A stretch of DNA of 64,000 bases, taken from IMG/VR virus record IMGVR_UViG_3300043570_004127, positions 64,001 to 128,000 of that record; one strand, written 5' to 3'. Positions 1-20,548 of this stretch are shown here, in pieces. Source of the stretch: a virus. The position numbers and the translations under genes are program-made. The notes beneath the pieces are model-generated. The model saw only the letters and a program-made list of their open reading frames with translations. It made no database searches and had not been told where the DNA came from. Positions within the stretch are counted from its first letter, which is position 1. Each line of letters opens with the position of its first letter.

Positions 1-3000
1 CTGTAGAGGAGTGCGTCAACCCACCAACCTTTTTTTCTGAGTTCGTCATCCTCGCCCCTGAAGTAAGAAACTCCTGACGGCCCACTCTCTGGGTATTGTG
101 AAACTTGTGAACGGAAAGAAAGAATAGGTTCAAATATTGAAACTTTCTTATCTTTCCAGCGCTTACCCCTGTATGTTATTCGATTTTTTTTTTCCTCTGG
201 TCCAGTACCATCAACAGTCATGGAGCCAGTAATGTCGTTGTCCTCATTATCGTCAAAAAACTCGCCAAATGGATTTCTGTTTACTTTACTGAGGTCACCC
301 ATTGGTACATCTTCGGGTTCAAATTTCCATCTCGGTGGTAGCCCTTGCTGTTCACGAACGTACCAGTCTGGAACTCGTTTTCCGGTAATCGGGTCGATGT
401 ATGAAAAGTCTTCGCCGAGTGTTGTGGTCACAGGAAATGGGTTTCCTGAATCATCAACATTGGTTCGCTTGGGTGTGCGAGTAGCGTTATTCTGTTGGCG
501 TCGCGGCCGGCGTTCGGTAGGTCTAACGGAGTCGTAGAACAGGCGTTCTTCTGGATTGCTCAGGACAGAGTATGCCTCTGAAATCTTTTTGAATAAGGCT
601 TCGTTGTTTTTATCTCCAGGATTTAGGTCTGGGTGCGTTTCTCTCGCTGCTTTTCTGTATGCGGTTCGCAGTTCTTTGTCGTTCGCATCTTCTGCAATAC
701 CAAGAATATCGTAGTAATCGTTATCTTTGTACTGTTTTCTCGGGAACCCCATAGCTCCAGTGATACCACTAGAGTTAAATCGGTTCATTGTTTCGGCTTG
801 GTCAATTTTTACCTCGACAACGTCTTTGCCGTGCAAATAGGCCATGTCTCTTATCGACACACCATCCAAGCGCATATCAATAAATTGCTTTTGGGAATCG
901 TTAAGATTTGAGCCGTTGAGAATTATGGCCCTTCTAAGTAATTGCGTGTTTGCATTGTCGGTCTTCTCGAGTGCATCTGAGTACTTCTTGAAGCTATCCC
1001 TTGCCTGGGCTGGAGTTATGTCTTCGGCCTTGGCAATTGTTTCTATGTCCAAACCGTCATGCTTGACCGCCACGTAGACCCTTTTTGGAAGACCGCGCTG
1101 CGAATTTATTGGGGCATTTATTAAATCTTTTTCTTTAACAGCCATTTTTCTTTCGAAAAGTTCCCTATTTTGCCCGCGCAGTTTTGCGAGTATTAACGAT
1201 TCAGATGTAATCGCGTCAAGAACATCCGTGCCTTCAATTTCTGCAATTTTATCGATAGGCATCCCGTCGAAGCGCATTTTCATGTGTCTGTTTTCGGCCG
1301 GAGTGAGGTTTTTCTTACTGTTCTGAAAAGCTTTCTCATATGTAGAAAGAATCTCAGTCTTGTTGTTTTCGATGAAATCAAGGTGATTCTGAACCGCGTC
1401 ATTTACTTCGCTAGCTTTTATCCCAAGCGTTTTCGCTATTTCGGAGTTGGAAATTCTTTCGTACGTCTTGCTGTAGAAGGCTTCGAGGTTGGTTTTTCTT
1501 AATTCTTCCCCCTCTTTGGACATTTCAATAAATTTAGAGAATGGAACTTTGTCAACACCCATGGAACCCGTGATATTTCCTGCTGATAGTGCGGACTTGT
1601 ATCTATTCCGTGCGACAGCCTCTGTTAGTCCTAGCTCTTTGGCTACCTCTTTAAATGTCTTACCGTTTCCAATGAGTTCAACGACCCTTGCTGACTCATT
1701 GTTCCGCTTTGCTTTTTGCTTGTCGGCATGTATCGAGCTTAAACCAATTGCTCTTTGGACTTTAATTACTTCGTTCGTGCTTATGTCTAGTTCGTTGGCT
1801 ATGTCGGAAGCAGAATGTCCACCAACAAATGACCTCTGAGCGATGAACTTTATGTTTTCCGCTGACTGAACTGGGGCAGCAGGCTTTTCGTCACGAAGTT
1901 TTGCAAAAGTTACGCCGTCCATGCGTGCCTTGTAAATTACATCTTTTACTTGCTGTGGGTTGAAAGAGTGAATTCCGCCATCGGCACGTGTGAAGTTGTC
2001 GGTCTCCCATTTTGCATTAATCGAGCGAGCTATAAGAACTGGATTTAGTTCTGTTCTTCGGAGCGCAATTACGTCTTTCATAATTTTGTCGCGCTCGTCT
2101 TTACTCAAATTGTCGGAAGACCAACTGGTTATCGGGCCACGGAAATATCTTCCTGCCATTGCCCCAGTAATTCCGCCATTGCGTCTTTCTCTGGCCCATT
2201 TCATTATCCGTTTGTTATGCAATTCAGCATCAGGGCCAAACGCTGTATAGCCGCTGTCTGCATTTTCTGTTGGTCGCGGAAACAGTTTCAATTTTTGGCC
2301 GGTCTCAATCGAGATTCTTTCCCTGGCCGCATTAACACCAGAGATGATTCGTTGTTGTCTCCTGCGCGAAATAGCGTTTAAGTTAACGAATCTGTCGTGT
2401 AATGCTTCATCGTCTGTGCCTGCAAGAGCAAGAGCAACCCATGCTGCATGGCCAAATGCTAGCGGCCTGGTGCCACCCGATATTCTTTCAAGTGAATACC
2501 ATGCCGCTGTTGATGCGTCGTCTCCGGCACGAACATCCGTATCTGGTGATACTTCAAGTACAACTCCGGATATTCTGGCGCCGTTAACGAATCTTGGGTC
2601 CCAGTCACGGGCCTCGATTTCACCGAGATGTTCCATTCTTATTACATCTTTATCCGTGACATTAACTTCTTCTAGGGCTTCTCGTTGTGCTGTGTCTCGC
2701 AATTCTTCGTCATCGTTTCTCATTCCACCAGGAAGCGACAATGACCTTGTTTGAGCGGTATGTGGACCAAACAATCTTTCTATTAGGAGTATTTCACGCT
2801 CGCCTGTTTCTGGATTTGTTCTAAGGATTACAGCATCGCCAGCCTCTTGCATTGGCTTGGAGTCATTACCTAGCACCCATGGAGTGATGGAGTCTGCAAC
2901 ATCGAGTTCAAAATTCCTATCCCCTGTGTACTCGCCCAATCTTTGACCCAGGCGCGCGGCGGTTCGCATCGTTTGGTCGGTAGGGGCGTATGGTAATTCA

Positions 3001-6000
3001 CCGCGTTTTTCTCTTTGATAAAGATTCGCAATGTGCAATGCGTCTTCATGTTTGGGGTGACCCTGTGGGAAAAGCTTGTGTCCCAATTCATTTACAACAT
3101 ACCAATTTCCATCAGGAAATTCTTCTGTGTAAAGCTGCATTGCTCCGGATATTCCGCCACCATATATGCGTTTTGCATTATCGGATAGTCTCGTTGGTTT
3201 GTAATCAATGAGTCTGGACGTGTATGCTCTCGCTCTCGAGATGTCCAGTTTTTCGGCATCCGCGGGGTTGAATACAGGCTGCGCTTGTCTTTTTTGTCCA
3301 CGCACCTTTTTGAATGTTTCCCTTGCGGACGTCTTGATATCTCTTGTGTTGTCCGCGAAGTCAGACACCATGCGTGCAATTTGTTGCAGCTTTGGCGGTA
3401 GATATCTGAACCCTGGATTGTTTTCTACGGGTTTAATGGAACCATTTGTCGCGTCTGCTATCTCTTGCGTCATGTTCCTGTTGTACCCAGAAGCCGAGTT
3501 TCGAACAGCCCTACTTATAGGAAGGCCGGCTTTGTCGTATCTTCTAAGTACGTTGGGTGCGACAAATTTAAAGTCCCCATATGCTGCTTGTCTGGCAGCT
3601 TTTCGTGAGGACATTTTGGCTGTGTCGTAGAACTCCGCATCTCTTCCACCGAGACGCATAAATCCACTTATTCCTGATTGGTTTGCTTGAGTCCTTACTC
3701 TTCCATACTCGTTTCTAAGTTGCTGTAATTCGGATATGTTTCTTTGGGCGAGCGCTGTTATTCGAGCCGTAGCACCAGAAGCAGCATCTCGTCCGTCTTC
3801 ACGGGCGGAAAATCTCATCTTCTTCAACAACTCTCCCAGGGGGCCAGGTTTTTCTTCTGTTCCCAGGTGAAGCGCGTCCCATCTTCTTATTCTGTTCAAA
3901 TACTGCGTAGCAGATTCTTTTGACTTATCCCAACCTGGGAGTATTGTCCCATCCCTAAGTGTCTGTTGTTCTCTATTGGGCGGTCGTGTTGCAAATATTT
4001 CTCGAACCAGAATCATCTGTCTTGAAAAAGCGGTCCTAAATCTTGAGTACTCTATTTCGATTTTGTCAACAATTGATTTTTGCTTGTCTATCTCTTTGTC
4101 GATTGCCTTAGCCCAATCCTTTGGTTCAAGCCCTTTAGCAACAAACTCATCTTTTATTCTCTGAATTCTCTTCTTTGTAAATTCGTCGGCTCGTGATAAG
4201 GCAGCAGTATCCGCAACCCTTCTGGCATCATTGTATTTCTGCGTACTGATGTTATTTTCCAAAGCATAACGCTTGAGCGCCAAAATCAAATTTTGAGTAT
4301 CAATCAAATTTTCATCGAATGCAATCTCGTCTGCAGAAAGAGTTCCAGAATCAAAAAGGTTCCACAACTGCGCCCTTCGTGCCGAAGATGCAGGGGTCGA
4401 AGAATTTAGGTCGTCATGTTCCTGCTTGATTGCGGCATCACGTGCTTCCTTTAGTTTCGTGCGAGCTTGAGATGCACTGTAGTCATCCGCAGAAAGATTT
4501 ACGCTAGGCATACCACCGCTGCCATAAGAACCGCTTCTTGTTATTTCATTTAAATCACCGATTAATTCTCCATTAGCGTCACGTGTAAACCATTGAGGTT
4601 CATCCGCAGCAATAACTTCAATCAGTCTGTCTAAGCCAGAAGCAACACTTTGGTCCATTGCTAATGGGTCCGGACTGTTTATGTCACCTTTGTAAAATGC
4701 GTCTTCAAGCTCTTTTGGCGGAACGGCGACATCGACCATTTCATCTAGGTTTTTATATCTATCTACCTGGCTTCCCGGGTAGTCTTCTGTCCATTCACGT
4801 AGAAAGTGACCGTTCGACAACCAGTGCCTATAGAGCACCTGGTCGAGTAGGTTCATTTTTGTTACATCTATTGGGTTGCCATTGATATCAAGATTGAATG
4901 GGTGATTATCGCTTCCGTCGTATGCTGGTGCAATTATGTTTCCCTCATCATCGTAAATTGGCTGGTTCCAAACTTCCGGTGTGTCAAGAGTTCCGTATTT
5001 GTCTTCAAATCTTGGCTGTGATGCCTTGTCCCCGTAGTTCATGAGTTCATTTAGGAATTCTTCAATCTGCCGACTGATTTCTCCTTCATCGTCTCCCATG
5101 ACTGAACCACCATCATCGTCTGGTGGCGGTGGTGGCTCTTCACTTCCATCGTCTGGCGCTGGCGGCTCGTCGCTACCATCTTCTCCTGCTTCTTCACCTG
5201 GTTGACCAGGGTCGATGGCGTCCATGTCGGAAGCGCCATCATCGTCGATGTTGTCTATTCTCCGTGTACGAGATGGATACTCTGGACGTAGTACGTCGTT
5301 TGAAAGCCAACCGTTCGATTGTCCAATATCTATGAAAAGATTAAGTTTTTCTTGAGCTGCAAGAGCTTCAATCGGGTCTACGTTTTCTCCGTCGAGAATT
5401 CTGTTGGTAACGTCAAAGAACGGTTGTGCTGATTCTTCAACCCCCTGCGACCATTCGGTGTGGGTATAAGGCATGCCCGTATTAGGGTTCAGTAGTTCTT
5501 CTGGAGTCCTATCCATCCATGCCGGGATATTGTTTAGGAAATCCTCTATCGTCGCTATACCGTTAGCAACATCTTTGTCAATTTCATTATCAATCATTTG
5601 CTCGACAAGTTTGTCGAAGTTTGGGTCACTCGTTGACAATCCATTATCTTGAAGCATGCGTTTTGCAAGCATCGTTCTAAACTCTAAGTCTTGATACTCG
5701 TCAGCTATACCATATGCCACATCTTCGGCAAGTGAAAGTGTTGTCGAGTTAAGTGGCTCGCGCACAGATTGTCTTATGTCGGAATTTGATGGATTATTTG
5801 CATTTATCAATCCAGGGATAATAAATGTATTAAAGAAATTATCAATTTCCTTATCCGACATTGCATCCGGGTCAAGTCTTGAGATATTTCCGGATGGATT
5901 TACGTTTTTGTATTCGTCTAAAAATTCCTTAACTAATGGACGTTTTATGTTTGCTGCTGCTGCCAACTCTCTTGGCGACGGCGGAGCTGTGGCTGCCCTG

Positions 6001-8261
6001 TATCCCTGCATTGAAAGTCCGGCATCGTTCAGTTCTACTGACGTCTTATCGAACAAATCATCAACTTGGTCATCCGAAAGAATATCCAAACCGCTAATAG
6101 CTCTTGCTATGTCGTCTCCAACGAGAGCGGAAGAAAGTGAAGGAAGTTTCGTGTCCCTATCTGGTAGGAGAGCGAAATTCTTGAGCTGTTGGCGCTTCCA
6201 CTCTCTTCTCTTCCAATCAGACTCTTCTTGTGGTGTCATGTTCGGACCAGTCGCCATGGCTCCGGTTATCGATGAATCCCACATTTTTCCGGCATCGTTA
6301 TCCCTCGAAAGCTCCCTATAGAAACGCGCGTTCGATGCTCGCTCGTTCGTATCCCATCTAGATGAAGAGCCATCAAATGCGCTTTGGGCAGTTCTCTGTA
6401 TTTCGTTTAACTGCCTGAATCCGTTTGGCTTATTATTTCGGTCGGCAATATCTCTGACGTATCCACGTTTATTCGCTCTGTTCGTTTCGCGTATCCCGAG
6501 TACGAATTTTGAAGAATCTTTTTCTGGAGACTGACCAGAAGGGAAGGCCCTAAAAAGGTCGGCTTCTAGTTCTCCGTTTTTATTGTTCTTCTTTGAATCT
6601 CCGCTTCGGAAAACCCAATTCAACATTGAGTCCCAATTTTTGATTTTTCCTTCGCGCGCTGCTTCTAGAATCGGTTCTTTCGATACACCCATTCTGCTCT
6701 CTACAGCACTCGACAACTTGTTGTTATTGTTTTTAAAAGCCTTTTCGTTTTCATCTCTAAAGTCTTGATGATTTCGCAATACCGTAGCAATTTCATCGCG
6801 GACCACATCGAATTTGTCGGCGAGCTCGTCAATGGAGTAATCGCCATCTTGCCAAGCGCGATAAATTTTATTCTTTTCTTGTCTATCGAGTTGATTTGAG
6901 AAATCATCGTAAGACTCTTTCAGTGCGCGAGCACGCTCTGCTTCCATGCCAAGTTTGCGAGCGGTTTCTTGTAATTCTTCAGTAGTTGAATCAATTTGCT
7001 CCACCTGTTGGACGGCTTGAGGCTTTGGCTTCGCCTCGCTAGCTTTAGGTTTTGGAGTATTAATCGGCTTGCGTTCCGCAACTCTCTCCGCCTCCCGGCG
7101 TGGTGTTGTTGGCTTTGCTCTCTCTATTCGTGCTGGTTTCTTTTCTGCGCTTTGTCCGCGAGACACAACCCTGGGAACGCGGTCTTCTCTCGGCTCACGG
7201 CGTGGGAGATTCACCCTATTTTCGGTAATTCGTTGAGCTAAACGTTCTGTTGGTTTTACGCTTGGTGCACTTGGTTTTTTGACTGGACCGATTGGATTAA
7301 TTCCAGGTATCGCTGGGCGTTCGTGAATTGTGCCTTCCTGAACAACCCTGTCAGAGTCGGCGTCTCTTGCATTTTGTTCGAATGGAACTACTGCAGCTCC
7401 AATTCCTCCCATTGTTCTACGCGCGGAACGTCCCCTGTTTTCTACTTCCCCAACTCCGATGCGACCAGCGAGCCCGCCACTAAGTCGTCTCCCAACGGCC
7501 TTGAAATCTAACTCCTCGTAGAATTCAATATGCTTTTGTCCTCTTGCTGCTCGTTTTCTAGCCTTAGCTGCTGCTCTTGTATTCGAAACCACTCGCTTGC
7601 CAAGCTTGCTTCCTTCTATTTTTTTACGATTGGTAGCAGCACGTTGCCCCACGGTTAAATTTTCCCAAGCTTTTGCTGGCAAATATCTTCTTGTGACAGT
7701 TCCACGTTTTGCTGGCTTGCCATCTATTGTGCGCCATTTTTGCTTGGTCCACCTACCCAAAGAGCGTTGAGTCTTACTCTTGCTTCCCCTGTATCCACCA
7801 CCAGCTTTTCTGTATGCATTGGCGAGAAGCTGAGCTTTTCTTGCAGACCACTGGCCCGGTGCTCCACCTTTAGAGCCAGACATTATCCGTTCTTTTAGAC
7901 GGTCGCGTAATTCTGGCTTTGTATAGTTGGCGCTTTTTTCTTTGTATTTTCGTTTCGAAGGAGAGCCAATTATTTGCCTTATCTCGCGCTCTAATTGAGT
8001 TCGACGATATTTACGACCAGAAAAACCTATTCCGGAATATTTTCTGTAGTCCGATTCGTTTGTGCATGGCATCCATGAAACACCGCCGGTTCGGTTACTG
8101 TATCGACGAATTCCGATGCATCCAAGTTGTCTTGCTCTAACGCGAGCAGATTCTGGGTCTGAATAAGTATCTGGGTCTGAAGGACGAACGATACGCGCTC
8201 CGCCCAGAACATCCTTGATTTCAGAATTTTCGTCTTCGTTAATCTGGTCCATATAGTCCAT
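1..8261 (-). CDS. Giant multidomain putative virion polyprotein (>2750 aa, truncated at the window edge). N-terminal DUF3721-like and DUF5872-like motifs, acidic/Pro-rich region, Nudix hydrolase, tandem sigma70-region-4-like HTHs, DnaJ J-domain
   Basis: Manual translation from ATG at 8261 gives MDYMDQINEDENSEIKDVLGG. No in-frame stop was found, and the ORF track omits it, consistent with no stop before position 1. Motifs in this frame: RARQLGCIG...WMPC; NYTKPELRDRLKERIMSGSKGGAPGQWSARKAQLLA; PGGMRNDDEELRDTAQREALEEV; DYYDILGI...HPDLNPGD...FKKISEAYSVLSNPEERLFYD. Seven GITGAM-type motifs are also in this frame. Confidence 0.9.
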   Translation of the reverse strand, partial: MDYMDQINEDENSEIKDVLGGARIVRPSDPDTYSDPESARVRARQLGCIGIRRYSNRTGGVSWMPCTNESDYRKYSGIGFSGRKYRRTQLEREIRQIIGSPSKRKYKEKSANYTKPELRDRLKERIMSGSKGGAPGQWSARKAQLLANAYRKAGGGYRGSKSKTQRSLGRWTKQKWRTIDGKPAKRGTVTRRYLPAKAWENLTVGQRAATNRKKIEGSKLGKRVVSNTRAAAKARKRAARGQKHIEFYEELDFKAVGRRLSGGLAGRIGVGEVENRGRSARRTMGGIGAAVVPFEQNARDADSDRVVQEGTIHERPAIPGINPIGPVKKPSAPSVKPTERLAQRITENRVNLPRREPREDRVPRVVSRGQSAEKKPARIERAKPTTPRREAERVAERKPINTPKPKASEAKPKPQAVQQVEQIDSTTEELQETARKLGMEAERARALKESYDDFSNQLDRQEKNKIYRAWQDGDYSIDELADKFDVVRDEIATVLRNHQDFRDENEKAFKNNNNKLSSAVESRMGVSKEPILEAAREGKIKNWDSMLNWVFRSGDSKKNNKNGELEADLFRAFPSGQSPEKDSSKFVLGIRETNRANKRGYVRDIADRNNKPNGFRQLNEIQRTAQSAFDGSSSRWDTNERASNARFYRELSRDNDAGKMWDSSITGAMATGPNMTPQEESDWKRREWKRQQLKNFALLPDRDTKLPSLSSALVGDDIARAISGLDILSDDQVDDLFDKTSVELNDAGLSMQGYRAATAPPSPRELAAAANIKRPLVKEFLDEYKNVNPSGNISRLDPDAMSDKEIDNFFNTFIIPGLINANNPSNSDIRQSVREPLNSTTLSLAEDVAYGIADEYQDLEFRTMLAKRMLQDNGLSTSDPNFDKLVEQMIDNEIDKDVANGIATIEDFLNNIPAWMDRTPEELLNPNTGMPYTHTEWSQGVEESAQPFFDVTNRILDGENVDPIEALAAQEKLNLFIDIGQSNGWLSNDVLRPEYPSRTRRIDNIDDDGASDMDAIDPGQPGEEAGEDGSDEPPAPDDGSEEPPPPPDDDGGSVMGDDEGEISRQIEEFLNELMNYGDKASQPRFEDKYGTLDTPEVWNQPIYDDEGNIIAPAYDGSDNHPFNLDINGNPIDVTKMNLLDQVLYRHWLSNGHFLREWTEDYPGSQVDRYKNLDEMVDVAVPPKELEDAFYKGDINSPDPLAMDQSVASGLDRLIEVIAADEPQWFTRDANGELIGDLNEITRSGSYGSGGMPSVNLSADDYSASQARTKLKEARDAAIKQEHDDLNSSTPASSARRAQLWNLFDSGTLSADEIAFDENLIDTQNLILALKRYALENNISTQKYNDARRVADTAALSRADEFTKKRIQRIKDEFVAKGLEPKDWAKAIDKEIDKQKSIVDKIEIEYSRFRTAFSRQMILVREIFATRPPNREQQTLRDGTILPGWDKSKESATQYLNRIRRWDALHLGTEEKPGPLGELLKKMRFSAREDGRDAASGATARITALAQRNISELQQLRNEYGRVRTQANQSGISGFMRLGGRDAEFYDTAKMSSRKAARQAAYGDFKFVAPNVLRRYDKAGLPISRAVRNSASGYNRNMTQEIADATNGSIKPVENNPGFRYLPPKLQQIARMVSDFADNTRDIKTSARETFKKVRGQKRQAQPVFNPADAEKLDISRARAYTSRLIDYKPTRLSDNAKRIYGGGISGAMQLYTEEFPDGNWYVVNELGHKLFPQGHPKHEDALHIANLYQREKRGELPYAPTDQTMRTAARLGQRLGEYTGDRNFELDVADSITPWVLGNDSKPMQEAGDAVILRTNPETGEREILLIERLFGPHTAQTRSLSLPGGMRNDDEELRDTAQREALEEVNVTDKDVIRMEHLGEIEARDWDPRFVNGARISGVVLEVSPDTDVRAGDDASTAAWYSLERISGGTRPLAFGHAAWVALALAGTDDEALHDRFVNLNAISRRRQQRIISGVNAARERISIETGQKLKLFPRPTENADSGYTAFGPDAELHNKRIMKWARERRNGGITGAMAGRYFRGPITSWSSDNLSKDERDKIMKDVIALRRTELNPVLIARSINAKWETDNFTRADGGIHSFNPQQVKDVIYKARMDGVTFAKLRDEKPAAPVQSAENIKFIAQRSFVGGHSASDIANELDISTNEVIKVQRAIGLSSIHADKQKAKRNNESARVVELIGNGKTFKEVAKELGLTEAVARNRYKSALSAGNITGSMGVDKVPFSKFIEMSKEGEELRKTNLEAFYSKTYERISNSEIAKTLGIKASEVNDAVQNHLDFIENNKTEILSTYEKAFQNSKKNLTPAENRHMKMRFDGMPIDKIAEIEGTDVLDAITSESLILAKLRGQNRELFERKMAVKEKDLINAPINSQRGLPKRVYVAVKHDGLDIETIAKAEDITPAQARDSFKKYSDALEKTDNANTQLLRRAIILNGSNLNDSQKQFIDMRLDGVSIRDMAYLHGKDVVEVKIDQAETMNRFNSSGITGAMGFPRKQYKDNDYYDILGIAEDANDKELRTAYRKAARETHPDLNPGDKNNEALFKKISEAYSVLSNPEERLFYDSVRPTERRPRRQQNNATRTPKRTNVDDSGNPFPVTTTLGEDFSYIDPITGKRVPDWYVREQQGLPPRWKFEPEDVPMGDLSKVNRNPFGEFFDDNEDNDITGSMTVDGTGPEEKKNRITYRGKRWKDKKVSIFEPILSFRSQVSQYPESGPSGVSYFRGEDDELRKKGWWVDALLY

Positions 8262-8372
8262 TAGATTGAGTTTTCGTGCAGGATGGCTGCACTACGGATT
8301 TGCGACGCAGGAGCTAATCTAATAGTACTCCAACAAAGGTTCTCTGGAGATGAATCAGTTTTTGTCAATAGA

Positions 8373-10682
8373 TTATTCATTGTTTAAAAGTTTTTCAAGT
8401 TCTTCCTGGTGCAGCTGTTTTATTGCTTCAATATCAATATTTATGAATTGCGACCTAGCGAAGTCTGCTAAGTCGAATTTCTCCGGATTACGTCCTTCGT
8501 CAATGTCAATCTGATAAGCAATTTGGAGCGTATCCCGGATGTCCCTGGCTTGAGAACTGGTGACCGAATCGATGGTGTTTTTTTCAAGGAATTTGGGGTT
8601 TTGAATTTTCTTTTTATTAAGGAATGATTCTCTTTCATTTTTCAAAAGTTTTGCAACCATCGCACTAGTTAATTGCTCTGAATCAAGCAGGGTGGCATCT
8701 CGTAGTTCTTCTGTTAAATGTTTTAGTGTTGTTGCTCGAGATATCTTTTCATCCACCTTTGAGTCTACTGTTTCCAGAATTTTATCTACTACGTATTCAG
8801 GTATTTTTGAATAATCGTCGCTTTCTCGAACCACCGACGTAGATTTCGGGATTGGACTAAGTCCAAAAGATGACCTTAGGTCGTCTTCTATTTGTTTTAT
8901 TCTCCTGTCAAACTCCGAGATTAATTTGCCTTCATCGTTCTTAAAGGCGAGACGAACACCAACCTCCTGCCCTTTACTGTTTTTTGCTGTGACATAAGGG
9001 TTATTCAACCATGAGTTATATCTCTCCCAATACTGGGATGGATTTATTTCTTTGGAAAATGTACCGAGAAAGTCGCGCACTTGTTGGGCTGCTGCAGTTT
9101 GGGGGTTTGCTGGGGTTTCGGAATGTGTAAAAACAACACCGAATGGGTCGTATAGAGCCCCATGGTCACTTCCTGATTTTCCCCACAGGAGCCCCAATTG
9201 TTCTATTTGTTTAGAAACTTTTTTTAATTGCGGAGCATACCCAGTCCCATATCTAGCATACTCTATCCCCCCAAATTTTGCGAATCCAATTTCAAAATTT
9301 CGTTTGCTATGTGCGTTTATGTACTTCAATCTGGTTGAGTCATCTTTCCACCAGAAAGTTAAACCACTAGATGGGTCACGTTTTCCTTGCGTAAAATATT
9401 TGAAATTGTCAATATCTTTTTGCGCCCATTTTTTAATAAATGGTAATTCTTTATGTGTGTCGCGTTGAGGTCCACCGCCAACGGCTTCCCTAAATGCTTT
9501 TGGACTTATTCCAAGTCCGGCCATCGCACCGGTGATTCCACCATTTTTCAGGTGTGACGAACGGGTGTGATAGTTATCTGGATTGTTCCAAAAAACATCA
9601 TTTCCTATTCTGTATCCTGCATCGCGAAGTGATTGAGCCATTTCTCTCGTTGAATTAAACTCGTCATTTAGTCCATGCAGCTGCATTGAGCGAGCGATTT
9701 TGAATAGTCGTGCTCCGTTTATGTTGTTTGTTGGGTCTTGACCGCCATCGAAATCCGGGTTAGCAATCCAGTCATGTTTTTTTATATCCCAGGCCATCGA
9801 CTGTAAGTAGAGCCCAGCTGCCGTCCTTAGTGATTCCAGGTATTCTGGATTGTTCTTTAAATCCTCTAATGGCTTTCCGCTGATGTCGTACCTAAAACCA
9901 TATCCGGCGCTTCCTCTGTCTATTGGGAATGTCCACCAATCAAAGTGCTGCTTGTGAAACTCTGCCCAATTTCTACTGTCGGCCCATGTTTTGAATTTCC
10001 TAGTTTGATTTGCCTGTTCCGATACAAGGCTATCAATTCCGCCAAATGGGGTGTTGTTTGTTTTCGCAACGTACTGTTTTGGTTTAGGTTTTTTGAACCT
10101 ATCCATCATCCCCATTTCGCCAGTTATTGAGTCACCTGGCGTTGGGTCTGGCATCTCTCTGGAGGTGCCATCAAAAATTAGGCCATTACTATTTGCATCA
10201 TTGCGTGTTAATGGGTTTTGGTCGCCGGTTATTTTTGCATTATTAAGAATTCGTCTTCCGATTCTGGGAAGAGCTTTTCCGGTTATGGCATCCCTATTTA
10301 TCCCGCCGTTTGTTATTGGAGGAATAATCCCACCACCAAAAGCCGTAACCGTACTCCCAGAAGGAGTCGGAGGGGGATTTAATATATCAGTATCAAGTCT
10401 TTCTCCAGAAAACGCTGCTCGACGTCGTTTTTTCTTTTTTACTCGTTTTGGAATAACTTCTTCAGTGTTTAGCTCCTTACCAGAACCGCCACCCGTCGAA
10501 CCGCTGTATGAATAGTGCGCACTGACTAATCCGACGCCATCGACAGATACTGGAGCATCAATCAATCGCTCTTTTAACTTCTCCCAGCCAGAAACGTTCT
10601 CTCCACGCAGCTTTCGTTTTTTTCGATTCTTGCGTTTTGGTGAAGATATCTCCGGCGTAATTTGTTTACTTTTATTATCCAT
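8373..10682 (-). CDS. 769-aa multidomain putative virion polyprotein with an OGFr-like module and a HicA-like module
   Basis: Long ORF. HFDWWTFP...NGARLFKIARSM follows SITGEM. GLLWGKSGSDHGALYDPFGVVFTHSETP follows GITGAM. Confidence 0.7.
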   Translation of the reverse strand: MDNKSKQITPEISSPKRKNRKKRKLRGENVSGWEKLKERLIDAPVSVDGVGLVSAHYSYSGSTGGGSGKELNTEEVIPKRVKKKKRRRAAFSGERLDTDILNPPPTPSGSTVTAFGGGIIPPITNGGINRDAITGKALPRIGRRILNNAKITGDQNPLTRNDANSNGLIFDGTSREMPDPTPGDSITGEMGMMDRFKKPKPKQYVAKTNNTPFGGIDSLVSEQANQTRKFKTWADSRNWAEFHKQHFDWWTFPIDRGSAGYGFRYDISGKPLEDLKNNPEYLESLRTAAGLYLQSMAWDIKKHDWIANPDFDGGQDPTNNINGARLFKIARSMQLHGLNDEFNSTREMAQSLRDAGYRIGNDVFWNNPDNYHTRSSHLKNGGITGAMAGLGISPKAFREAVGGGPQRDTHKELPFIKKWAQKDIDNFKYFTQGKRDPSSGLTFWWKDDSTRLKYINAHSKRNFEIGFAKFGGIEYARYGTGYAPQLKKVSKQIEQLGLLWGKSGSDHGALYDPFGVVFTHSETPANPQTAAAQQVRDFLGTFSKEINPSQYWERYNSWLNNPYVTAKNSKGQEVGVRLAFKNDEGKLISEFDRRIKQIEDDLRSSFGLSPIPKSTSVVRESDDYSKIPEYVVDKILETVDSKVDEKISRATTLKHLTEELRDATLLDSEQLTSAMVAKLLKNERESFLNKKKIQNPKFLEKNTIDSVTSSQARDIRDTLQIAYQIDIDEGRNPEKFDLADFARSQFINIDIEAIKQLHQEELEKLLNNE

Positions 10683-10691
10683 ATAGCTTTA

Positions 10692-11075
10692 TTAATGCCG
10701 GTCAGAGTCTTCTATTTCAACGCTTGGATTATCTTTTATGTACATATCGATAGCAACCATGCGATTCCCGTTGGAATCCTTTATGTACTTTTTTGCTTCT
10801 TTTATTTCTTTGGAATACTCTTTCTCCAGTGCCGCGTATGGACGAAAATTATCTGGAATTTGAGTTTGTAGAAGTTTGTTCCCGGCGGACCAAAGTTCCC
10901 AGGCTTTCTCCATAAAAGAATTTCTTTTTTCCTTGTTGACCGAAAGGCACATAGGAGGAAAGTCTGCCATATCTTCAAAATCCGATATCGGCAACTGAAC
11001 CTTTCTCAACAACTCTTCATAGGAGCGTAATTCATCTACTGTAAAATTTTCGTAGTTAATCATGTTGCCGTCCAT
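10692..11075 (-). CDS. Hypothetical protein (127 aa)
   Basis: Packed tightly between the 2108-aa and 769-aa genes on the same strand. Confidence 0.7.
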   Translation of the reverse strand: MDGNMINYENFTVDELRSYEELLRKVQLPISDFEDMADFPPMCLSVNKEKRNSFMEKAWELWSAGNKLLQTQIPDNFRPYAALEKEYSKEIKEAKKYIKDSNGNRMVAIDMYIKDNPSVEIEDSDRH

Positions 11076-11076
11076 C

Positions 11077-14000
11077 CTAAAACCAATTACTTGGACTCAA
11101 TTGAGCCGTTTTCCCATTTGGGTATTGTATCGCCCCTAGAAGGGGGGCGTAGTCGGTGTAGTCTTTTATTGGTTTATTCTCCATAATCATTGAAGAGCGA
11201 TTAAGCATAATGATTCTTCCTATTGAACCATTTAATGCGTGTTTCCATATTTGGGATGGTGTTATCGAGGAATCACTGATTCCTTCTGCGGCAAAACCAT
11301 CGTACCCCATCATGGTTGCAATGTTTTCTCCTCGCATAAACAATTGAGAGCGTATAGCTCTAATTATTTTTTTATTGTTGTCTGTAGCGCTTTGTAGACC
11401 AGCTGATTCATCTTCAAGCATTTTCACAAGGTCGCTAACGTGTGTCATTCTCTGTTGCAGCCATGCATTCCATAGGTCTTTTGTTTCCTCTATTTCCCGC
11501 AACTCATCAACCGACATTGCTGCAGCTTCCGAGATTCCTGGGAAAAGTGCTTCTCTCATATTTCTATCTAATCTCCCGTCTCTATTCATGCCCTCAATGG
11601 TTACGGCGCCCCAGCTAGCATCTGGTCTTTGACCTGGGGCAACAGGCGTACCTTTGGCGGTAAGTCTATCTATATGTGCGTCGAGCTCGACTATTTGCTG
11701 ACTACTCAATGTCTTGCTGTTTGGATTTAGTTTCAAACTGTCTACTGGAATGCCGTATATGCTTGATTGTCCATGGGATGAGTTCGTTCCGTTTGGGGCA
11801 TTCGGTGCACCAAGTGCGTTATATAGCGACCAAAGAGCTTCATAGCTTTCTCCGCTGTTTCCGCCTCCCTCTCCGCCAAAGATGCTTCCAAACTGCTTTC
11901 TGTTTACCAATCTTGACTCTTGCGAGAGGACCGCAACCATAGACCCACCCTGGTGACCGTGGTACGACTTCCATGCACTCGGGCTTTGGGACCAATACTC
12001 TCCCCTGCCGCTAGCGTTTCCGCCCTGCCCAGGTATAAACCGGTCTCCAGTTAAGGCATCGTTCACCATTTGCAACTGCACTGAAGCCGGTGCTCGTTGC
12101 TTGCCACCGACGCCTCTTGAAATAACGACATATCTTGGTTGACCGTCGGTCTCGACTTCCTTCAACATCTCGATAATTTCTTCTCTACTGGCGAGTACGG
12201 GGAAGCTATTAAATCCGTTGAATTGCCAAACAGCACCGAGGTGTGCGGTACCGGCATCCGGATAAACAATTCCAGCTATCCGTGAACCTTGAGGTCCGAC
12301 TATTGGCTGGTTTGGATTTGCCAAACCAGCGTCATAAATTTCTCCCAATACATCCAACATATCAATTTGCTCGTCGCTTATTGTTGCTGGCGCACCATGG
12401 GTAATAAATTCAAACAGCGTTTGCGCTCGGTGGTCGTCTCTTATTGTTATTATTTCACTTGCAGTTCTTAGTGCCTGTGGTGGCGTTGGCGAATTCCACG
12501 GGTCGAGAATTGATGGTTGATTGTCATACAATCCTTCTGCTCTTGGTAAACCCTGCGCTGCACGCGCAGCAACCCGTCGCGTTCTTTCGTTGGAACGTTT
12601 GGCTCTGTCTTCCATGCCAATTCTTATTGCATTTTCTATTGCAGCAAGAGCTGGAGGATTATTAACTATATGTTTTTCCAGTAGGTGGGCAGCCTGCTCA
12701 GCAATTGCTCCTTGGAAAATATAAATATCCTGGAGACCTTTATTGCGTCTCTTGTTCGTTGAAAGCTCTCTTCTCCATCCGCTCAAAGCATTGTCGCGAG
12801 CATCAACTGCCGTGGCGTGCACAGCAGAAATATGTCGTTGTGCGTCAAGCCAGGCCGAATTTGCTTTTTGTCTTAAAGTGTCTATTTCTTGCTGTGTGCT
12901 GCCGGGAATTGGATTGTTGGCTGCATGCTCTAACTGAAGCGCGCGATTGATTGGAATAGTCATTCCAGCGGTTGTTGTTCTCGAGCGATAGCTTCCATCA
13001 GGAAGATAGAACTCACCGATTGGTAAATTAGGGTCAAGACCGAGTCTTTCTACATTGAAGCTACCAGCATCTAAATATGCATTATTCGGATACGCTGCTC
13101 CATCGGCAATAAGTTTGGTGGTTGTAGGGCTCGCGTTTGTTATGGAACGCGAGAGCCAATTTGCTCCATCGAGAAGTTCGTTTGAAGTAGCCGCGTTTTG
13201 GAGTAACTGCACAGCTATTGTTGCGTCTAAATCTTTGAGTAATGGAAATACTGGCTGAGTCACGTCATTAGTAACGCGTGCACCTCTTGTGTCTATGTAA
13301 GACAATTCGCTCAGGGGTGCTTCCGTCTGGGCACTAATTTTTTTATTTCCACCTTTTTTGTGTTCTTCAAAACGCTTCCTCACTGCGTTCCTGAATGAAC
13401 TAATTACACCTATGTAGTGATTTTTGGCAGCGGCAGTTTTGGGTTTTACTGTTATATCTAGTGACGGTGTGTTTGGGTCGACGCCTGGCGCTACTCGTAG
13501 TACCGGTATTCCTTTTGTTAACGCGTTATTGGTGTCCACCGCTATATGTGGGAATATATTCCCAACCCCTGCCCCACCGTCGAGTACGAGTGGTTTTGGG
13601 GTGTAAATGGAATGCTGGTCAATCGGAAGATTTGATAAATCTTCAACAAACTCCCCGGTTGATGTGTCAATGTAAAGTCCTGACTTGGTATCAAAAACGA
13701 TTCCCAACGCTGAGTTGCCCACTCCTGGGGTAATTGTCTGTCCGGTTCCAGGGGCTCGCGGTATAGGTGTCGTCGTTGGTATTACTGGTGCACTTGGCGT
13801 AACGCTTGGAGCGATTGGGGGAGTTGGGACGGGAGGAGTAGAAGGAGTCGATGTTGGGGTAGGAGGGGCCGACGGGGTAGGAGAAACTGGAACTGGTGAC
13901 GTAGCACCACCACCCGGAGTCTGTGGGGTGTTCCCTCTATTTGGACCATACGGTGTGTACGGTCTGCGTTTAACCGGGTCAACTCCTGTTCCCGTTATCT

Positions 14001-17000
14001 TTGCATTGTCCATCACTCTTTTGCGCAAAGATGGTTTTAGGTCGTTGATTAGGTTGTGGTCTTTTGTTGATTCAAAATCAGTTAATACCAAAAAGTTATG
14101 GAGATTGGTTTCTTCTATTCCGGCTCGCCTTGCGTCTGTTTTCGAAAGATTATCTATCCAACTAAGCAATTCGTCTTCGGTTAGTGGGTTTGTGTCGCCA
14201 ACTGCTTTGCCTAATTTCTTCCTAAAACTATCTTCTCTGTAGTCCAGTTCTTTCTGCATTTCTGAAGAAAGAAGTGATTTGTCAAGAGCACTCAGTGTCG
14301 ATGCGTCTGGTAGTTCTGGTCCTGTCGTGGTTTTGCTGAAACGCAATCCACTTCTAGTACTGCTGTTTGTAACAGAACGAACTCTCGCTCTTGTTGATGG
14401 TACTGCCTGCTGTTGCTGCTGGTTCGCTGGTCTTCTAAACCTACCTAAAACGCGTTGTATGAAAGTAGGTTTGGCATTTTGTGCTGGAGTTTGACTTTTT
14501 TGAATTTCATTTTTTATGTAATCGCTAGCAATGTATTTAACTTCATCGTTGCCATTTGCATCCGTGATTACGACAGCAGAAACAATGTGGTGCCCTTCGT
14601 CATCGAGAAAATGTGCCGTAGAGGAATTTGAATCTTCAATGTAGATTGGAGGCTGATACGGGTAGTTATTGTTTGGCTTAGGATTTCTCGTGCTGTATCT
14701 TATGGTGTTCCCTTTTGAATCCACCTGTTCAATCGTAAGACCAAAATTGGATACGGCACCCTGTGTCGGAGAAGGGCCATTCGGGTCATTGAAAGCTTTT
14801 GACCACTCATCAATTATTTCTTGTAATTCTTTTTGATTAGCGTCATCAAAGGAATCTGGTAATAGAGGTTTTCTATTTGGGTCTGTCAAAAGATTGTTTA
14901 GCTCAAGTACGCCACCAAAGTTTGATTCATCTTTAGTCCATACCGAGGCAGGTACTCCCTGTGGTGGCATGAGGTCCTGGAGAAGGATGTCAATTCTTGG
15001 GTCTCCATTGTAGATATGGCGAGCGGAAAGGTTCATTGACGGTGAGACTCTTTGTCCACTTAGTCGTGGGTCGAGAGGATAATTTTGAGGGGGCGATGCA
15101 TAGTTGACTTCGTCTTGTGGATTTACTGGCTCTTGTCTAATTCTGCTAGCCATACGTCGCATGAACTTGGCTGCTCGTTCTCTCCGTGCGTCTGTGGCTC
15201 TTGGTCTTCTGCCCTGTAGTTCTCTGATTGCGCGTTCTGTGTCAGTTGGTGGAGGACCAAATATCCCAGTCGACTGACCGATTCTCTGGACGATTCCTGG
15301 AGTATTCGGTTTACTGCCACGATTTTTGCGTTTGTTGTTATTTTTTGGAGCCCTTACTTGTCCGCCAGCAATGCCAGCACTTTGGCTCGTGTTGTTAATT
15401 TTTGAGATGCGTCTATTTTTTCTTCTATCTGGATTGACTAAATCATCTGCTGTTTGCCGCATTCGCCGAGCTATTGCTGCGCGCCTATTCGAACCTCGTC
15501 TGCCAGTTCCGGTTGAAAGCAGTTCATTAACTGTTTCCTCCCCAATTATTAAGGCGTCGTTTCTATCAAAGGGGTCTAATCTTCTACCTATATCGGGATT
15601 CGGCTGCCTGCTTCCATCAGCCGCGAATTCAAATAAAAACTCTTTTGCTATGGATGAATTGTAATCAATTGCATACATCTCATTCGGGGTTATATAGGCA
15701 GGAATATTATTGTCAAAGTATCTATTAGCACTATCGGTGAGTTGTTGCGTAATTTGAGTCGACCTATTGCCAAGCCATTTCTGCGTATCTATCATTCCCT
15801 GGAAATCAAAAAATTCACCAGTTGCGTCATTGTAATAAATACCGTTATCAGCAATATCTAAAGGTATTGTTCCACCATTTGTTCTCAGCTCATCAGATAT
15901 TAACTGGTCTGGTCTCGTATATTTTCTGTTAAAAGAATTTGCTGGCGACAGGAAATCTTCTGTTTCCTTTCGAGTGAGAACTTTTGCCCCACTGTAGTTT
16001 GCTAGAGCATCACGATATGCATCTATAGTATCTATTTGTTTTTGATTGCCGTAAAGATTACTCGTCACTTTAGCTGTATGGAGTATGTCTAGTCGTTCTT
16101 TTTGAGTTATGTAATCACCGATTACATTCGTTAGGTCGTATCCTGTTTTGCTTACATCTAATGGGTCACGCACCCCGATAAGTTTGAGTTCGTTTACTAC
16201 TTCGTCCGAATCAATCATCTCGTCAAGGTTTATCAACAAGCCATCTCCCAACAGAATGGAGCCATTGTTGGAAAGTTTCTTAGGAAGTATTCCGCCGGTG
16301 TGCCTGTATTCCAGTGGGATTTTCTTATCTCTTTTAAATTTATTGTCTTTGGGGTTTGGTGTAGAAGTTGGAATTCTTCTGGCTGCTCTGCGGGAAGTCG
16401 CCGTATTGAAAGCGTCATTTCTTATGTCGTTTCCGACACGCGCTATAACAGTTCCAGCGGCGATGCGAGCCCTGTCTCGACGGGTCATGTCGGGATTGAG
16501 AGAACCATATACATCTCTTGCGGTTGGATTTGCGGCGCGGAGTTTTTCTTTTGCGGTGCGCTTATTTATTTTTTCAACACGTCTCGCAGCACGACGCCCA
16601 AATTTTTCAACTCGTGCAATTCTTCTTTTTTCTGCCCCTGCTTCGAGTCTTTGTCCTGCTCTCAAAAGGGCTGGCTTGTCAATATTGCTTAGGTCGTCAG
16701 ATGGTTTGGCAATGTCACGCAATGAAGCGCCAATCATCCCACGACCGATTCTTCTAACCATGCCGAAGGTACAACCAGTGCCGAGTCGGTTGGTGTACTG
16801 ACCACCGAACGGAGTGTTGTCTGGACAGCGCCAGCCACCGCCGCCAGGCATATTTGTATCCCAAACAGCACGGACACCCTTCACCTGGAGTGTGAGGCTT
16901 GAATTTTTGCTGTCATGGATGAATGCTCTGGTTTTATAGTTGACTGCAATCTGCTTGTATGCAACATCAATAGACGCCAATCCAATATCCGTAATTGGCC

Positions 17001-17403
17001 AATTAAGGATGTTTTCCTCTACCGAGTAATCATCCTCGATATTGAAATCATCACCAGTGGAACTATTTGCTGGAAAATATGGTGGCGCGCTCTTGGTTTC
17101 GATGATTCGCATCAGAGCTTTTTTCGAAATTTCATTTTTCAGTTCAGCGAAGGTGTTCTGTGAAAATTTTTCCTCTATTGAGTCAATGTCAAGACTGCCA
17201 ACATCTGACATTTCCCCAATCGTCAATGTTAAATCAAGTGATTCACGAATTGCTTCAATCGTCATTTTTTCATTATTGGCCCAGTTTGCCCAAACCTCTC
17301 CCTGGCCAAGTGCGCCAAATGCTATCGGCTCGCTGCTGGACAATACCAAAACGGCAAAAGTTTGCTTTGTTAGTTTGTCTTCAATTAATGCAACTTGTCT
17401 CAT
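11077..17403 (-). CDS. 2108-aa putative virion/ejection protein with a C-terminal ADP-ribosyltransferase-like domain
   Basis: Long ORF with an RCP...GGQYT...C motif and a Pro/Thr-rich linker. The C-terminus (GFNSFPVL...ISRGV...GQGGNASGRGEYWS...MGYDGF...IIMLNRS) resembles ART-like domains of phage MuF/polyvalent proteins. Confidence 0.7.
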   Translation of the reverse strand: MRQVALIEDKLTKQTFAVLVLSSSEPIAFGALGQGEVWANWANNEKMTIEAIRESLDLTLTIGEMSDVGSLDIDSIEEKFSQNTFAELKNEISKKALMRIIETKSAPPYFPANSSTGDDFNIEDDYSVEENILNWPITDIGLASIDVAYKQIAVNYKTRAFIHDSKNSSLTLQVKGVRAVWDTNMPGGGGWRCPDNTPFGGQYTNRLGTGCTFGMVRRIGRGMIGASLRDIAKPSDDLSNIDKPALLRAGQRLEAGAEKRRIARVEKFGRRAARRVEKINKRTAKEKLRAANPTARDVYGSLNPDMTRRDRARIAAGTVIARVGNDIRNDAFNTATSRRAARRIPTSTPNPKDNKFKRDKKIPLEYRHTGGILPKKLSNNGSILLGDGLLINLDEMIDSDEVVNELKLIGVRDPLDVSKTGYDLTNVIGDYITQKERLDILHTAKVTSNLYGNQKQIDTIDAYRDALANYSGAKVLTRKETEDFLSPANSFNRKYTRPDQLISDELRTNGGTIPLDIADNGIYYNDATGEFFDFQGMIDTQKWLGNRSTQITQQLTDSANRYFDNNIPAYITPNEMYAIDYNSSIAKEFLFEFAADGSRQPNPDIGRRLDPFDRNDALIIGEETVNELLSTGTGRRGSNRRAAIARRMRQTADDLVNPDRRKNRRISKINNTSQSAGIAGGQVRAPKNNNKRKNRGSKPNTPGIVQRIGQSTGIFGPPPTDTERAIRELQGRRPRATDARRERAAKFMRRMASRIRQEPVNPQDEVNYASPPQNYPLDPRLSGQRVSPSMNLSARHIYNGDPRIDILLQDLMPPQGVPASVWTKDESNFGGVLELNNLLTDPNRKPLLPDSFDDANQKELQEIIDEWSKAFNDPNGPSPTQGAVSNFGLTIEQVDSKGNTIRYSTRNPKPNNNYPYQPPIYIEDSNSSTAHFLDDEGHHIVSAVVITDANGNDEVKYIASDYIKNEIQKSQTPAQNAKPTFIQRVLGRFRRPANQQQQQAVPSTRARVRSVTNSSTRSGLRFSKTTTGPELPDASTLSALDKSLLSSEMQKELDYREDSFRKKLGKAVGDTNPLTEDELLSWIDNLSKTDARRAGIEETNLHNFLVLTDFESTKDHNLINDLKPSLRKRVMDNAKITGTGVDPVKRRPYTPYGPNRGNTPQTPGGGATSPVPVSPTPSAPPTPTSTPSTPPVPTPPIAPSVTPSAPVIPTTTPIPRAPGTGQTITPGVGNSALGIVFDTKSGLYIDTSTGEFVEDLSNLPIDQHSIYTPKPLVLDGGAGVGNIFPHIAVDTNNALTKGIPVLRVAPGVDPNTPSLDITVKPKTAAAKNHYIGVISSFRNAVRKRFEEHKKGGNKKISAQTEAPLSELSYIDTRGARVTNDVTQPVFPLLKDLDATIAVQLLQNAATSNELLDGANWLSRSITNASPTTTKLIADGAAYPNNAYLDAGSFNVERLGLDPNLPIGEFYLPDGSYRSRTTTAGMTIPINRALQLEHAANNPIPGSTQQEIDTLRQKANSAWLDAQRHISAVHATAVDARDNALSGWRRELSTNKRRNKGLQDIYIFQGAIAEQAAHLLEKHIVNNPPALAAIENAIRIGMEDRAKRSNERTRRVAARAAQGLPRAEGLYDNQPSILDPWNSPTPPQALRTASEIITIRDDHRAQTLFEFITHGAPATISDEQIDMLDVLGEIYDAGLANPNQPIVGPQGSRIAGIVYPDAGTAHLGAVWQFNGFNSFPVLASREEIIEMLKEVETDGQPRYVVISRGVGGKQRAPASVQLQMVNDALTGDRFIPGQGGNASGRGEYWSQSPSAWKSYHGHQGGSMVAVLSQESRLVNRKQFGSIFGGEGGGNSGESYEALWSLYNALGAPNAPNGTNSSHGQSSIYGIPVDSLKLNPNSKTLSSQQIVELDAHIDRLTAKGTPVAPGQRPDASWGAVTIEGMNRDGRLDRNMREALFPGISEAAAMSVDELREIEETKDLWNAWLQQRMTHVSDLVKMLEDESAGLQSATDNNKKIIRAIRSQLFMRGENIATMMGYDGFAAEGISDSSITPSQIWKHALNGSIGRIIMLNRSSMIMENKPIKDYTDYAPLLGAIQYPNGKTAQLSPSNWF

Positions 17404-20136: not shown

Positions 20137-20187
20137 CCAATTTCCCCTGGTTTAATTGTACGCACAAAACCAGCGCGATAAATAATG

Positions 20188-20538: not shown

Positions 20539-20548
20539 AAAACGACCT

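Follow-up and report, generated by a model that had tools for sequence, protein, structure and literature searches.

How does a single reading frame of 3,687 codons, lying among the head genes of a tailed phage, come to join a Nudix hydrolase, a J-domain, a zeta-type kinase and a series of helix-turn-helix (HTH) units in one chain, and what becomes of that chain? The question is raised by a 64,000-nt stretch of viral DNA (hereafter the window), which corresponds to bases 9528-73527 of a 108,378-nt IMG/VR virus record (G000:C1:9528-73527). A first-pass annotation, made from the sequence alone, had drawn attention to a minus-strand frame open from ATG 8261 past position 1 and had called it the largest payload polyprotein of the locus. 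Our reading, held at a probability of about 0.6, is that this giant open reading frame (ORF) encodes a 'beads-on-a-string' polyvalent protein that is delivered by the virion and cut at a repeated short peptide, the joint, by a phage-specific factor.

The giant reading frame and its joints

Both the ORF listing and formal translation gave a frame without a stop from ATG 8261 through the window edge (window 3..8261, 2,753 aa, 3'-open). The window part of the gene (1..8261, minus strand) covers aa 1-2753 of 3,687. Translation of the adjacent DNA located the stop 2,802 nt beyond window position 1, at L002 6725-6727, where the last of four further segments (s8-s11) ends. The complete giant ORF (L002 6725..17788, minus strand) encodes 3,687 aa with a mass of 414.6 kDa; the size of more than 2,750 aa first given for it was right for the window part and too small for the whole gene. 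The frame was intact in independent assemblies, at 98% identity on a 167,780-nt contig and at 91% on two more contigs, and a 2,633-aa fragment 100% identical to the giant ORF was found in a cluster of 12 member sequences. Since the same frame is intact in independent assemblies, misassembly is unlikely and the giant ORF is a genuine gene.

The chain is punctuated by a five-residue peptide, I-[T/S]-G-x-M, present in ten copies where 0.05 would be expected. The ten joints delimit eleven segments, numbered s1 to s11 from the N-terminus; seven joints, delimiting eight segments, lie within the window part. The 'seven motif-delimited modules' of the first-pass annotation therefore agree with the number of motifs in the window, but not with that of the segments. 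All on the minus strand, the joints are ITGAM at 6255..6269 (joint 1, aa 665-669), ISGFM at 3657..3671 (joint 2, aa 1531-1535, the F of which is retained in every homologue), ISGAM at 3138..3152 (joint 3, aa 1704-1708), ITGAM at 2157..2171 (joint 4, aa 2031-2035), ITGSM at 1560..1574 (joint 5, aa 2230-2234), ITGAM at 750..764 (joint 6, aa 2500-2504) and ITGSM at 219..233 (joint 7, aa 2677-2681), with joints 8, 9 and 10 at aa 2846, 2894 and 3122, beyond the window edge. A wider form of the peptide, [ILV][ST]GxM, occurs 27 times in the whole record against 1.45 times in residue shuffles (maximum 5). These joints concentrate in five ORFs: ten in the giant ORF, six in an ORF of 2,470 aa, two in one of 769 aa, two in the ORF of an S78 protease and three in a 1,671-aa ORF at the tape-measure position.

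Because the synonymous positions in the joint codons all vary from copy to copy, selection at the joints acts on the peptide and not on a DNA or RNA signal. An internal ribosome-binding site, a start or a recombination box could be ruled out on the same synonymous variation and on the joint of a sister lineage (G004, below), which has no Met; a DnaK-binding motif was dismissed on composition. Autoproteolysis at the joints is unlikely, because the linkers on either side are not conserved and offer no fold that could drive it.

Joints as borders of exchanged modules

Homologues of the giant protein fell into fifteen clusters of 2,048-4,000 aa, with BLASTP identities of 34-98% over the best local alignment, and a pattern scan of IMG/VR returned 135 related loci, of which 80 were kept. 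Joints were retained even in homologues only 31-40% identical overall, the flanks having diverged. The order s1-s2-s3-s4 was constant among homologues and the content behind s4 changed at the joints. When module insertion, loss and permutation were compared among the 15 protein clusters and 12 IMG/VR loci, homology blocks began and ended at joints, and it was there that whole modules had been inserted, lost or permuted. In relatives, unrelated modules of 428 aa and 291 aa sit exactly between joints, between s10 and s11, and the segments flanking them align from first to last residue. The kinase comes before the ADP-ribosyltransferase (ART)-like module in the homologue P0012, and loci L012 and L014 have the order J-domain, kinase, unknown, GNAT-like, unknown.

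Segment s10 matches the free-standing 245-aa gp117 of Mycobacterium phage LeBron from end to end at 40% identity, and has 170 free-standing relatives of 200-310 aa. When the last 935 aa were compared with cultured phages by tblastn, s10 alone was matched, as small genes of Mycobacterium cluster phages and a few others. Segments cut at the motif aligned end to end in 158 of 548 pairs, against 0-4 with random cuts, a difference that is largely a consequence of colinearity. Judged by the homology blocks that end at joints, the exchange of modules there and the free-standing family of s10, the modules behave as real, autonomous units of evolution, and the family appears to consist of a private core (s1-s4) to which borrowed genes have been appended as cassettes.

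In locus L011 the giant ORF is in two overlapping frames (9983-14467 and 14394-21767, plus strand), while the near-identical L014 has it in one piece (9983-21793); the difference is a frameshift or a sequencing error in one of the records.

Joints of the sister lineages

Related phages punctuate their giant proteins with other peptides. The complete genome G003 (137.8 kb, terminal repeats) has 21 sites of the form I-S-G-R-M-G-N. Lineage G004 (record of L081; loci L111-L115) uses G-S-K-S-[ST]-T, found 29 times against 0.36 expected, and lineage G005 (record of L085; loci L107-L110) uses G-M-R-S-[KR], found 28 times against 0.07, with 37 sites of the looser form GM[KR][ST] against 0.48. No [ILV][ST]GxM joints were found in G004 or G005, the own joints of which sit in their own giant head-operon ORFs. 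Ten [KR]-L-S-S-G sites occur in a 2,420-aa ORF of L027 (7142-14401, plus strand), in which a GNAT-like module is the sole part in common with the giant ORF; these sites would make up a joint of a fourth type. In G005 the S78 domain forms the first unit of a 3,661-aa polyprotein with 15 sites of the G005 type. Tandem joints 6-7 residues apart also occur. Because the joint is the sole conserved feature of the linkers and is swapped wholesale between lineages, it points to a co-evolving factor that reads it, for which a protease is the simplest candidate.

Position in the head operon

The minus-strand order is portal-Mu F ORF, S78 ORF, 520-aa ORF, 2,470-aa ORF, ORFs of 228, 690, 2,108, 127 and 769 aa, the giant ORF, the capsid gene and a terminator. 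The Mu F domain forms the C-terminus of the portal ORF, in which the record-wide count found no joint. The S78 ORF (window 29891-32383, minus strand, 830 aa) encodes an HK97-type S78 prohead protease with a DUF6321 domain and has its two joints at residues 347 and 648 of the stop-to-stop frame. That at 347, NP-x-[ST]-G-R-M-G, is found about 50 aa past DUF6321 and is kept in G000-G003, whereas that at 648 is not conserved. The S78 ORF is followed by a scaffold-like, acidic ORF of 520 aa (window 28012-29574, minus strand), which ends in a DUF6321-like block, and by the punctuated 2,470-aa ORF, which holds a zincin, a DEDDh exonuclease and an ATLF-like zincin. Directly downstream of the giant ORF lies the gene for an HK97-type major capsid protein (L002 5034-6395, minus strand, 3,133-4,494 nt before window position 1; Pfam Phage_capsid 2.4e-41), and a strong terminator (L002 4981-5020, minus strand) stands after it. 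The giant ORFs together take up about 33 kb between the genes of the prohead protease and the capsid protein, which is the usual place of scaffold genes.

The order of an ORF of about 2,000 aa, a small ORF, the giant and the capsid protein is conserved in relatives, P0012 and P0017 among them. The opposite strand encodes the terminase, the tail sheath and the ORF at the tape-measure position (window 46701-51716, plus strand, 1,671 aa), which comes after the sheath, the tube and a small ORF; its joints fall at residues 47, 590 and 854 of the stop-to-stop frame, and near its C-terminus there is a weak match to Peptidase_M15. The giant ORF is a late head-operon gene of an uncultured contractile-tailed phage. 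At 3,687 aa against 2,470 and 2,108 aa it is the largest of several multi-module ORFs in that operon, so that the phrase 'largest payload polyprotein' was apt as to size and modules. Its placement between protease and capsid also fits a virion 'payload', although the cleavage, packaging and ejection of the protein are our inference.

The 2,108-aa ORF upstream of the giant (window 11077-17403, minus strand) has no joint and gave no match in Pfam and PHROG scans. An ORF of this kind (1,800-2,130 aa) is conserved at the same position in nearly all related loci, even in those with a small head-domain protein.

Proposed delivery and alternative explanations

The delivery reading follows from the encoding of take-over functions in a late structural operon: the Nudix hydrolase, the J-domain, the zeta-type kinase and the ART-like enzyme are early-type functions, and the operon is of late type. 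According to the proposed sequence of events, the giant chain would enter the prohead along with the neighbouring punctuated giants and would leave the virion with the DNA, as would the joint-bearing protein of the tape-measure position. The peptide [ILV]-[ST]-G-x-M would be read in trans by a phage-specific factor, and cutting at the joints would yield about eleven proteins of 5-97 kDa, which could act on the host ahead of phage gene expression. The kit so released would comprise the Nudix and ART-like enzymes, the zeta-type kinase, a GNAT-like enzyme, the J-domain, the HTH units and basic segments; the J-domain could engage host DnaK. A more specific version, in our view rather unlikely, combines a lineage-specific 'protease and site' code, by which free genes are plugged in as cassettes, with an uncut chain that threads into the cell behind the tape measure and is then cut by a co-delivered zincin. 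In that case the chain might be drawn in and refolded by host Hsp70 that the J-domain recruits.

The same observations could be accommodated if the giant protein were never cut and the joints were linkers with another role, for instance in Ser/Thr modification, as a docking peptide or as a threading signal. Every joint type contains Gly and Ser/Thr, the same phage encodes kinases and glycosyltransferases, and full-length transfer or packaging is on record for some polyvalent proteins (PMC5512222). Tandem joints 6-7 residues apart and a 48-aa piece between two joints are nevertheless hard to explain as structural linkers. Within linkers that are otherwise not conserved, moreover, nothing but the joints is retained; from one lineage to another the joints are exchanged outright, as would be expected of an enzyme and its site; and the modules that they separate match complete free-standing proteins. 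We therefore consider an uncut chain improbable. Polyprotein expression being a common viral strategy, the giant ORF might also be processed without being virion cargo, as a device for making equimolar proteins that act late in the same infection. This is harder still to reconcile with the locus, for the gene lies inside the portal-protease-capsid operon with the terminator behind the capsid gene, the portal carries a Mu F domain, and the joints are held in common with the protein at the tape-measure position, a part of the virion. Sigma-like HTHs, ART, Nudix and J-domain are besides typical take-over functions which, if made late, would be useful only in the next cell, an argument after PMC5512222. 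That the frame is an artefact of chance or misassembly, or that internal starts at the joint Met codons account for it, has next to no probability. Its ATG lacks a clear Shine-Dalgarno sequence, but significant Pfam and PHROG domains lie all along the frame, the fifteen homologous clusters and many IMG/VR loci share it, internal starts fail on the G004 joints, and a DNA or RNA signal is excluded by the synonymous variation described above.

As to the start codon, no Shine-Dalgarno-like sequence was seen upstream of ATG 8261 (window 8262-8372, minus strand). The ATG is preceded at a distance of about 25 nt by a short inverted repeat (GTGCAG...CTGCAC), and the second in-frame ATG is codon 4.

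Candidate processing enzymes

If the virion-delivered chain is cut, our tentative candidate for the enzyme is an HExxH zincin that evolves rapidly and lies in the first module of the 2,470-aa polyprotein nearby; it would act outside the sealed prohead, possibly after ejection. Each of the four lineages has a punctuated polyprotein whose first segment holds an HE[FA]GH zincin, and between joint types this zincin can be aligned only at a shared N-terminal Cys motif, being too divergent elsewhere. A variable residue followed by an invariant Met would also suit the S1' pocket of a metalloprotease better than the P1 site of a serine protease.

The conserved S78 prohead protease, cutting the joints inside the prohead in a T4- or phiKZ-style maturation before DNA packaging, is a rather less probable agent, and we lean towards the zincin. 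The claim of S78 is that of a canonical head protease whose gene, with two joints of its own, stands on the other side of the giant ORF from the capsid gene, and whose domain heads the punctuated polyprotein of G005. The T4 prohead protease gp21 recognises Leu/Ile-x-Glu and cuts after the Glu. Three joint types have an aliphatic residue two places before Gly ([ILV]-x-G), which is formally like the P3-P1 pattern of gp21. SPN3US gp245 offers a precedent (PMC10052503). However, the S78 domain is 65-78% identical among lineages with unrelated joints (ITGAM, GSKSTT, GMRSR), and the capsid protein, expected to be its main substrate, is 70-77% identical and without any joint in four lineages. Homologues of the protein at the tape-measure position, which would assemble outside the head, carry the joint of their own lineage in G000, G003 and G004, and the invariant Met after a variable residue would be a less good fit to a serine-protease P1 site.

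Several points weigh against the reading favoured here. In four type-A lineages the S78 ORF retains the G-R-M-G site about 50 aa after DUF6321, which has the look of canonical self-processing and favours S78; a conserved S78 domain may be compatible with a specificity altered by a few substitutions; and the zincin modules might serve as effectors instead of processing enzymes. The joint motif is absent from the 1,633-aa protease fusion of Gordonia phage DalanDe, the nearest cultured S78 relative. The head domain of the giant protein has no recognisable capsid-targeting feature and matches solely uncharacterised phage proteins, and the predicted fold of most of s1 is of low confidence.

Comparison with known systems

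Polyvalent proteins of phages and conjugative elements carry two to fifteen distinct domains per polypeptide, among which a zeta-toxin-like kinase and NUDIX are named, and a proposed role of zincin metallopeptidases is to set these domains free, whether ahead of packaging, within the head or once injected (Iyer, Burroughs, Anand, de Souza and Aravind 2017; PMC5512222). The giant ORF resembles them in joining unrelated conflict and take-over domains (Nudix, J-domain, zeta-type kinase, GNAT-like, ART-like and HTHs) in one giant chain. It is likewise mosaic, with module insertions, losses and permutations between relatives, and lies near virion genes, in one co-directional block with the portal-Mu F and S78 genes on one side and the capsid gene on the other. 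A zincin is present as well, here in a neighbouring ORF. The J-domain sets the giant ORF apart, J-domains being unmentioned in PMC5512222. It differs further in the strictly repeated, lineage-specific short peptide that separates its modules and in a family-specific N-terminal core (s1-s3) ahead of the effectors.

T4 Alt is an injected ADP-ribosyltransferase, and s10 is ART-like. Ejection proteins are processed by the prohead protease in phiKZ, 201phi2-1 and SPN3US, with gp175 or gp245, and in T4, where gp21 acts on Alt and IPI-III; in most cases what is cut off is the N-terminal propeptide of a protein with a single function (PMC10052503). As in those phages, the genes lie in or near the head module and a short consensus motif is common to several head proteins. 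Their proteins are packed in the capsid and ejected with the DNA, as is proposed here from the genes alone. In contrast, one chain would here split into about eleven different proteins, their motif extends to the major capsid protein while the capsid protein here lacks the joint, and the prohead protease is of the HK97-type S78 family and not of the T4 gp21 type.

The virion RNA polymerase of phage N4, of about 3,500 aa, is packaged unprocessed and injected. It is comparable to the chain of about 400 kDa described here and shows that such sizes are deliverable (PMC5512222). N4 delivers one enzyme, however, and not a train of modules. Searches of the giant ORF with Pfam, PHROG and PDB sequences found no RNA polymerase family, although s2 and s3 could hide a very divergent fold. 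MuF polymorphic toxins, reportedly described by Jamet et al. in 2017, are said to combine a head-morphogenesis domain with variable C-terminal toxin modules in temperate phages. A Mu F domain is encoded in the same operon here, but on the portal, and the giant ORF carries not one toxin but many joint-linked modules. No Mu F domain was found when the giant ORF was scanned in full with Pfam and PHROG; because that domain is missing from the giant chain, the giant ORF is not a MuF toxin, and it is no N4-type polymerase either. Polyproteins of positive-strand RNA viruses are alike by analogy only, in having one ORF, many products, virus-specific sites and a protease within a polyprotein. The present virus is by contrast a tailed phage with double-stranded (ds) DNA, its products are accessory take-over proteins and not the replication core, and we infer the cleavage.

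No account of phage polyproteins punctuated by lineage-specific joints was found in the literature. Should the joints be cleavage sites, this would be a tailed dsDNA phage with a true multi-enzyme polyprotein, a strategy of RNA viruses, by which about eleven pre-made proteins would be delivered with the genome. Because the joints mark module borders without structural work, the giant ORFs can be used as parts lists of candidate injected anti-host proteins, many of which have no known fold (s2 and s3, and in relatives the unrelated inserts). Lineage-specific joints would imply several protease/site pairs that do not cross-react, which are possible tools. The family further illustrates the recruitment of free-standing phage genes (the LeBron gp117 family, Nudix, J-domain and kinase) into putative virion cargo.

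Core segments s1-s4

Segment s1 (6261..8261, minus strand, aa 1-667, 75.6 kDa) is the basic head of the protein, with an isoelectric point (pI) of 10.2, and the most conserved part of the family. Its layout comprises a DUF3721-like Cys-pair domain (aa ~25-100), a DUF5872-like basic block (aa ~105-235), a conserved DxDxD...ERP loop (aa 298-316) and one HTH (~aa 461-509). The DxDxD motif and HTH assigned to the head in the first pass were both recovered here. The two DUF labels given at the same time were below the Pfam cut-offs (18.7 bits for DUF3721 and 21.3 bits for DUF5872, against 27 and 27.5), although PHROGs 17747 (2.8e-20) and 14910 (2.2e-16) matched the same stretch significantly. In the predicted fold only aa 21-100 were confident, with a predicted local distance difference test (pLDDT) score of 82-96. 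In a tblastn comparison of aa 1-1706 with cultured phages, the DUF5872-like block and no other part was matched, by small genes of phages of Pelagibacter, Roseobacter, Methylophilales and Synechococcus. Where relatives have no giant, many proteins of 150-900 aa encoded at the corresponding genomic position likewise contain the DUF3721-like domain. In these small proteins (L029, L031, L032, L050, L063, L067, L081 and others) the stretch ...D-T-L-x-G-G-G-[LI]-V-[ST]-G... is conserved at 20-40 residues N-terminal to the domain, and a DxDGDG...(E/D)(G/N)T...ERP loop often follows.

Segment s2 (3663..6260, minus strand, aa 668-1533) is the acidic module for which a length of about 860 aa had been given; it has 866 aa and 96.8 kDa, a pI of 4.4 and a net charge of -67. 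It gave no Pfam family, no usable Atlas match and no PDB profile match below E 0.07, and an exhaustive HMMER search found homologues only inside giants of the same family (12 representatives among 1.84 billion). The basic module behind it is s3 (3144..3662, minus strand, aa 1534-1706, 19.4 kDa, pI 10.4), for which neither a Pfam family nor a free-standing homologue was found. The two very basic segments of the giant ORF may bind DNA. Segment s4 (2163..3143, minus strand, aa 1707-2033, 36.7 kDa) is the Nudix hydrolase of the first-pass annotation, matched by Pfam NUDIX at aa 1811-1939 with 39.8 bits (cut-off 21.1; 5.6e-10). Its intact Nudix box, GMRNDDEELRDTAQREALEEVNV, lies at aa 1846-1868 (window 2658-2726), where N replaces the last G of GX5EX7REUXEEXGU.

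Variable segments s5-s11

The HTH module and second HTH array noted behind the Nudix domain correspond to s5 and s6, both with sigma-70 region-4-type HTHs: s5 (1566..2162, minus strand, aa 2034-2232, 21.9 kDa) has two such units, and s6 (756..1565, minus strand, aa 2233-2502, 30.5 kDa) is an array of four. The J-domain, likewise borne out, lies in s7 (225..755, minus strand, aa 2503-2679, 20.5 kDa) at aa 2515-2577 (window 531-719), with a Pfam DnaJ match of 77.6 bits (7.9e-22), HPD at aa 2543 and matches to DnaJ J-domains in the PDB at 1e-14. The further module cut by the window edge is s8 (1..224 in the window; whole, L002 9245-9751; minus strand, aa 2680-2848, 19.1 kDa), which is GNAT-like with a match just below threshold (19.3 against 20.7 bits).

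Beyond the window, s9 (L002 9101-9244, minus strand, aa 2849-2896) is a basic peptide of 48 aa. It is followed by the ART-like s10 (L002 8417-9100, minus strand, aa 2897-3124, 26.6 kDa), a member of PHROG 4776 (1.3e-74) in which R160-G161, S172 and E217 are invariant in 44 sequences (YRG...SWT...ExE). Its AlphaFold2 (AF2) model had a pLDDT of 94. The C-terminal 90 residues of the model repeatedly resembled chains of the ART fold (Z 5-6.9), namely KptA/Tpt1 (Z 6.9, with 74 residues aligned at a root-mean-square deviation of 2.8), diphtheria toxin (Z 5.8) and TreX (Z 5.7), none reaching Z 8, and the best Foldseek match was a weak one to Vis toxin (E 0.09). This moderate evidence suggests that s10 is probably an ADP-ribosyltransferase of the R-S-E type. 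The last segment, s11 (L002 6728-8416, minus strand, aa 3125-3687, 62.3 kDa), combines a zeta-type P-loop kinase (Pfam Zeta_toxin 66-67 bits, cut-off 22.3; Walker A GPPGSGKS at aa 3245) with two HTHs, which brings the HTH units of the whole giant ORF to at least nine (one in s1, two in s5, four in s6 and two in s11).

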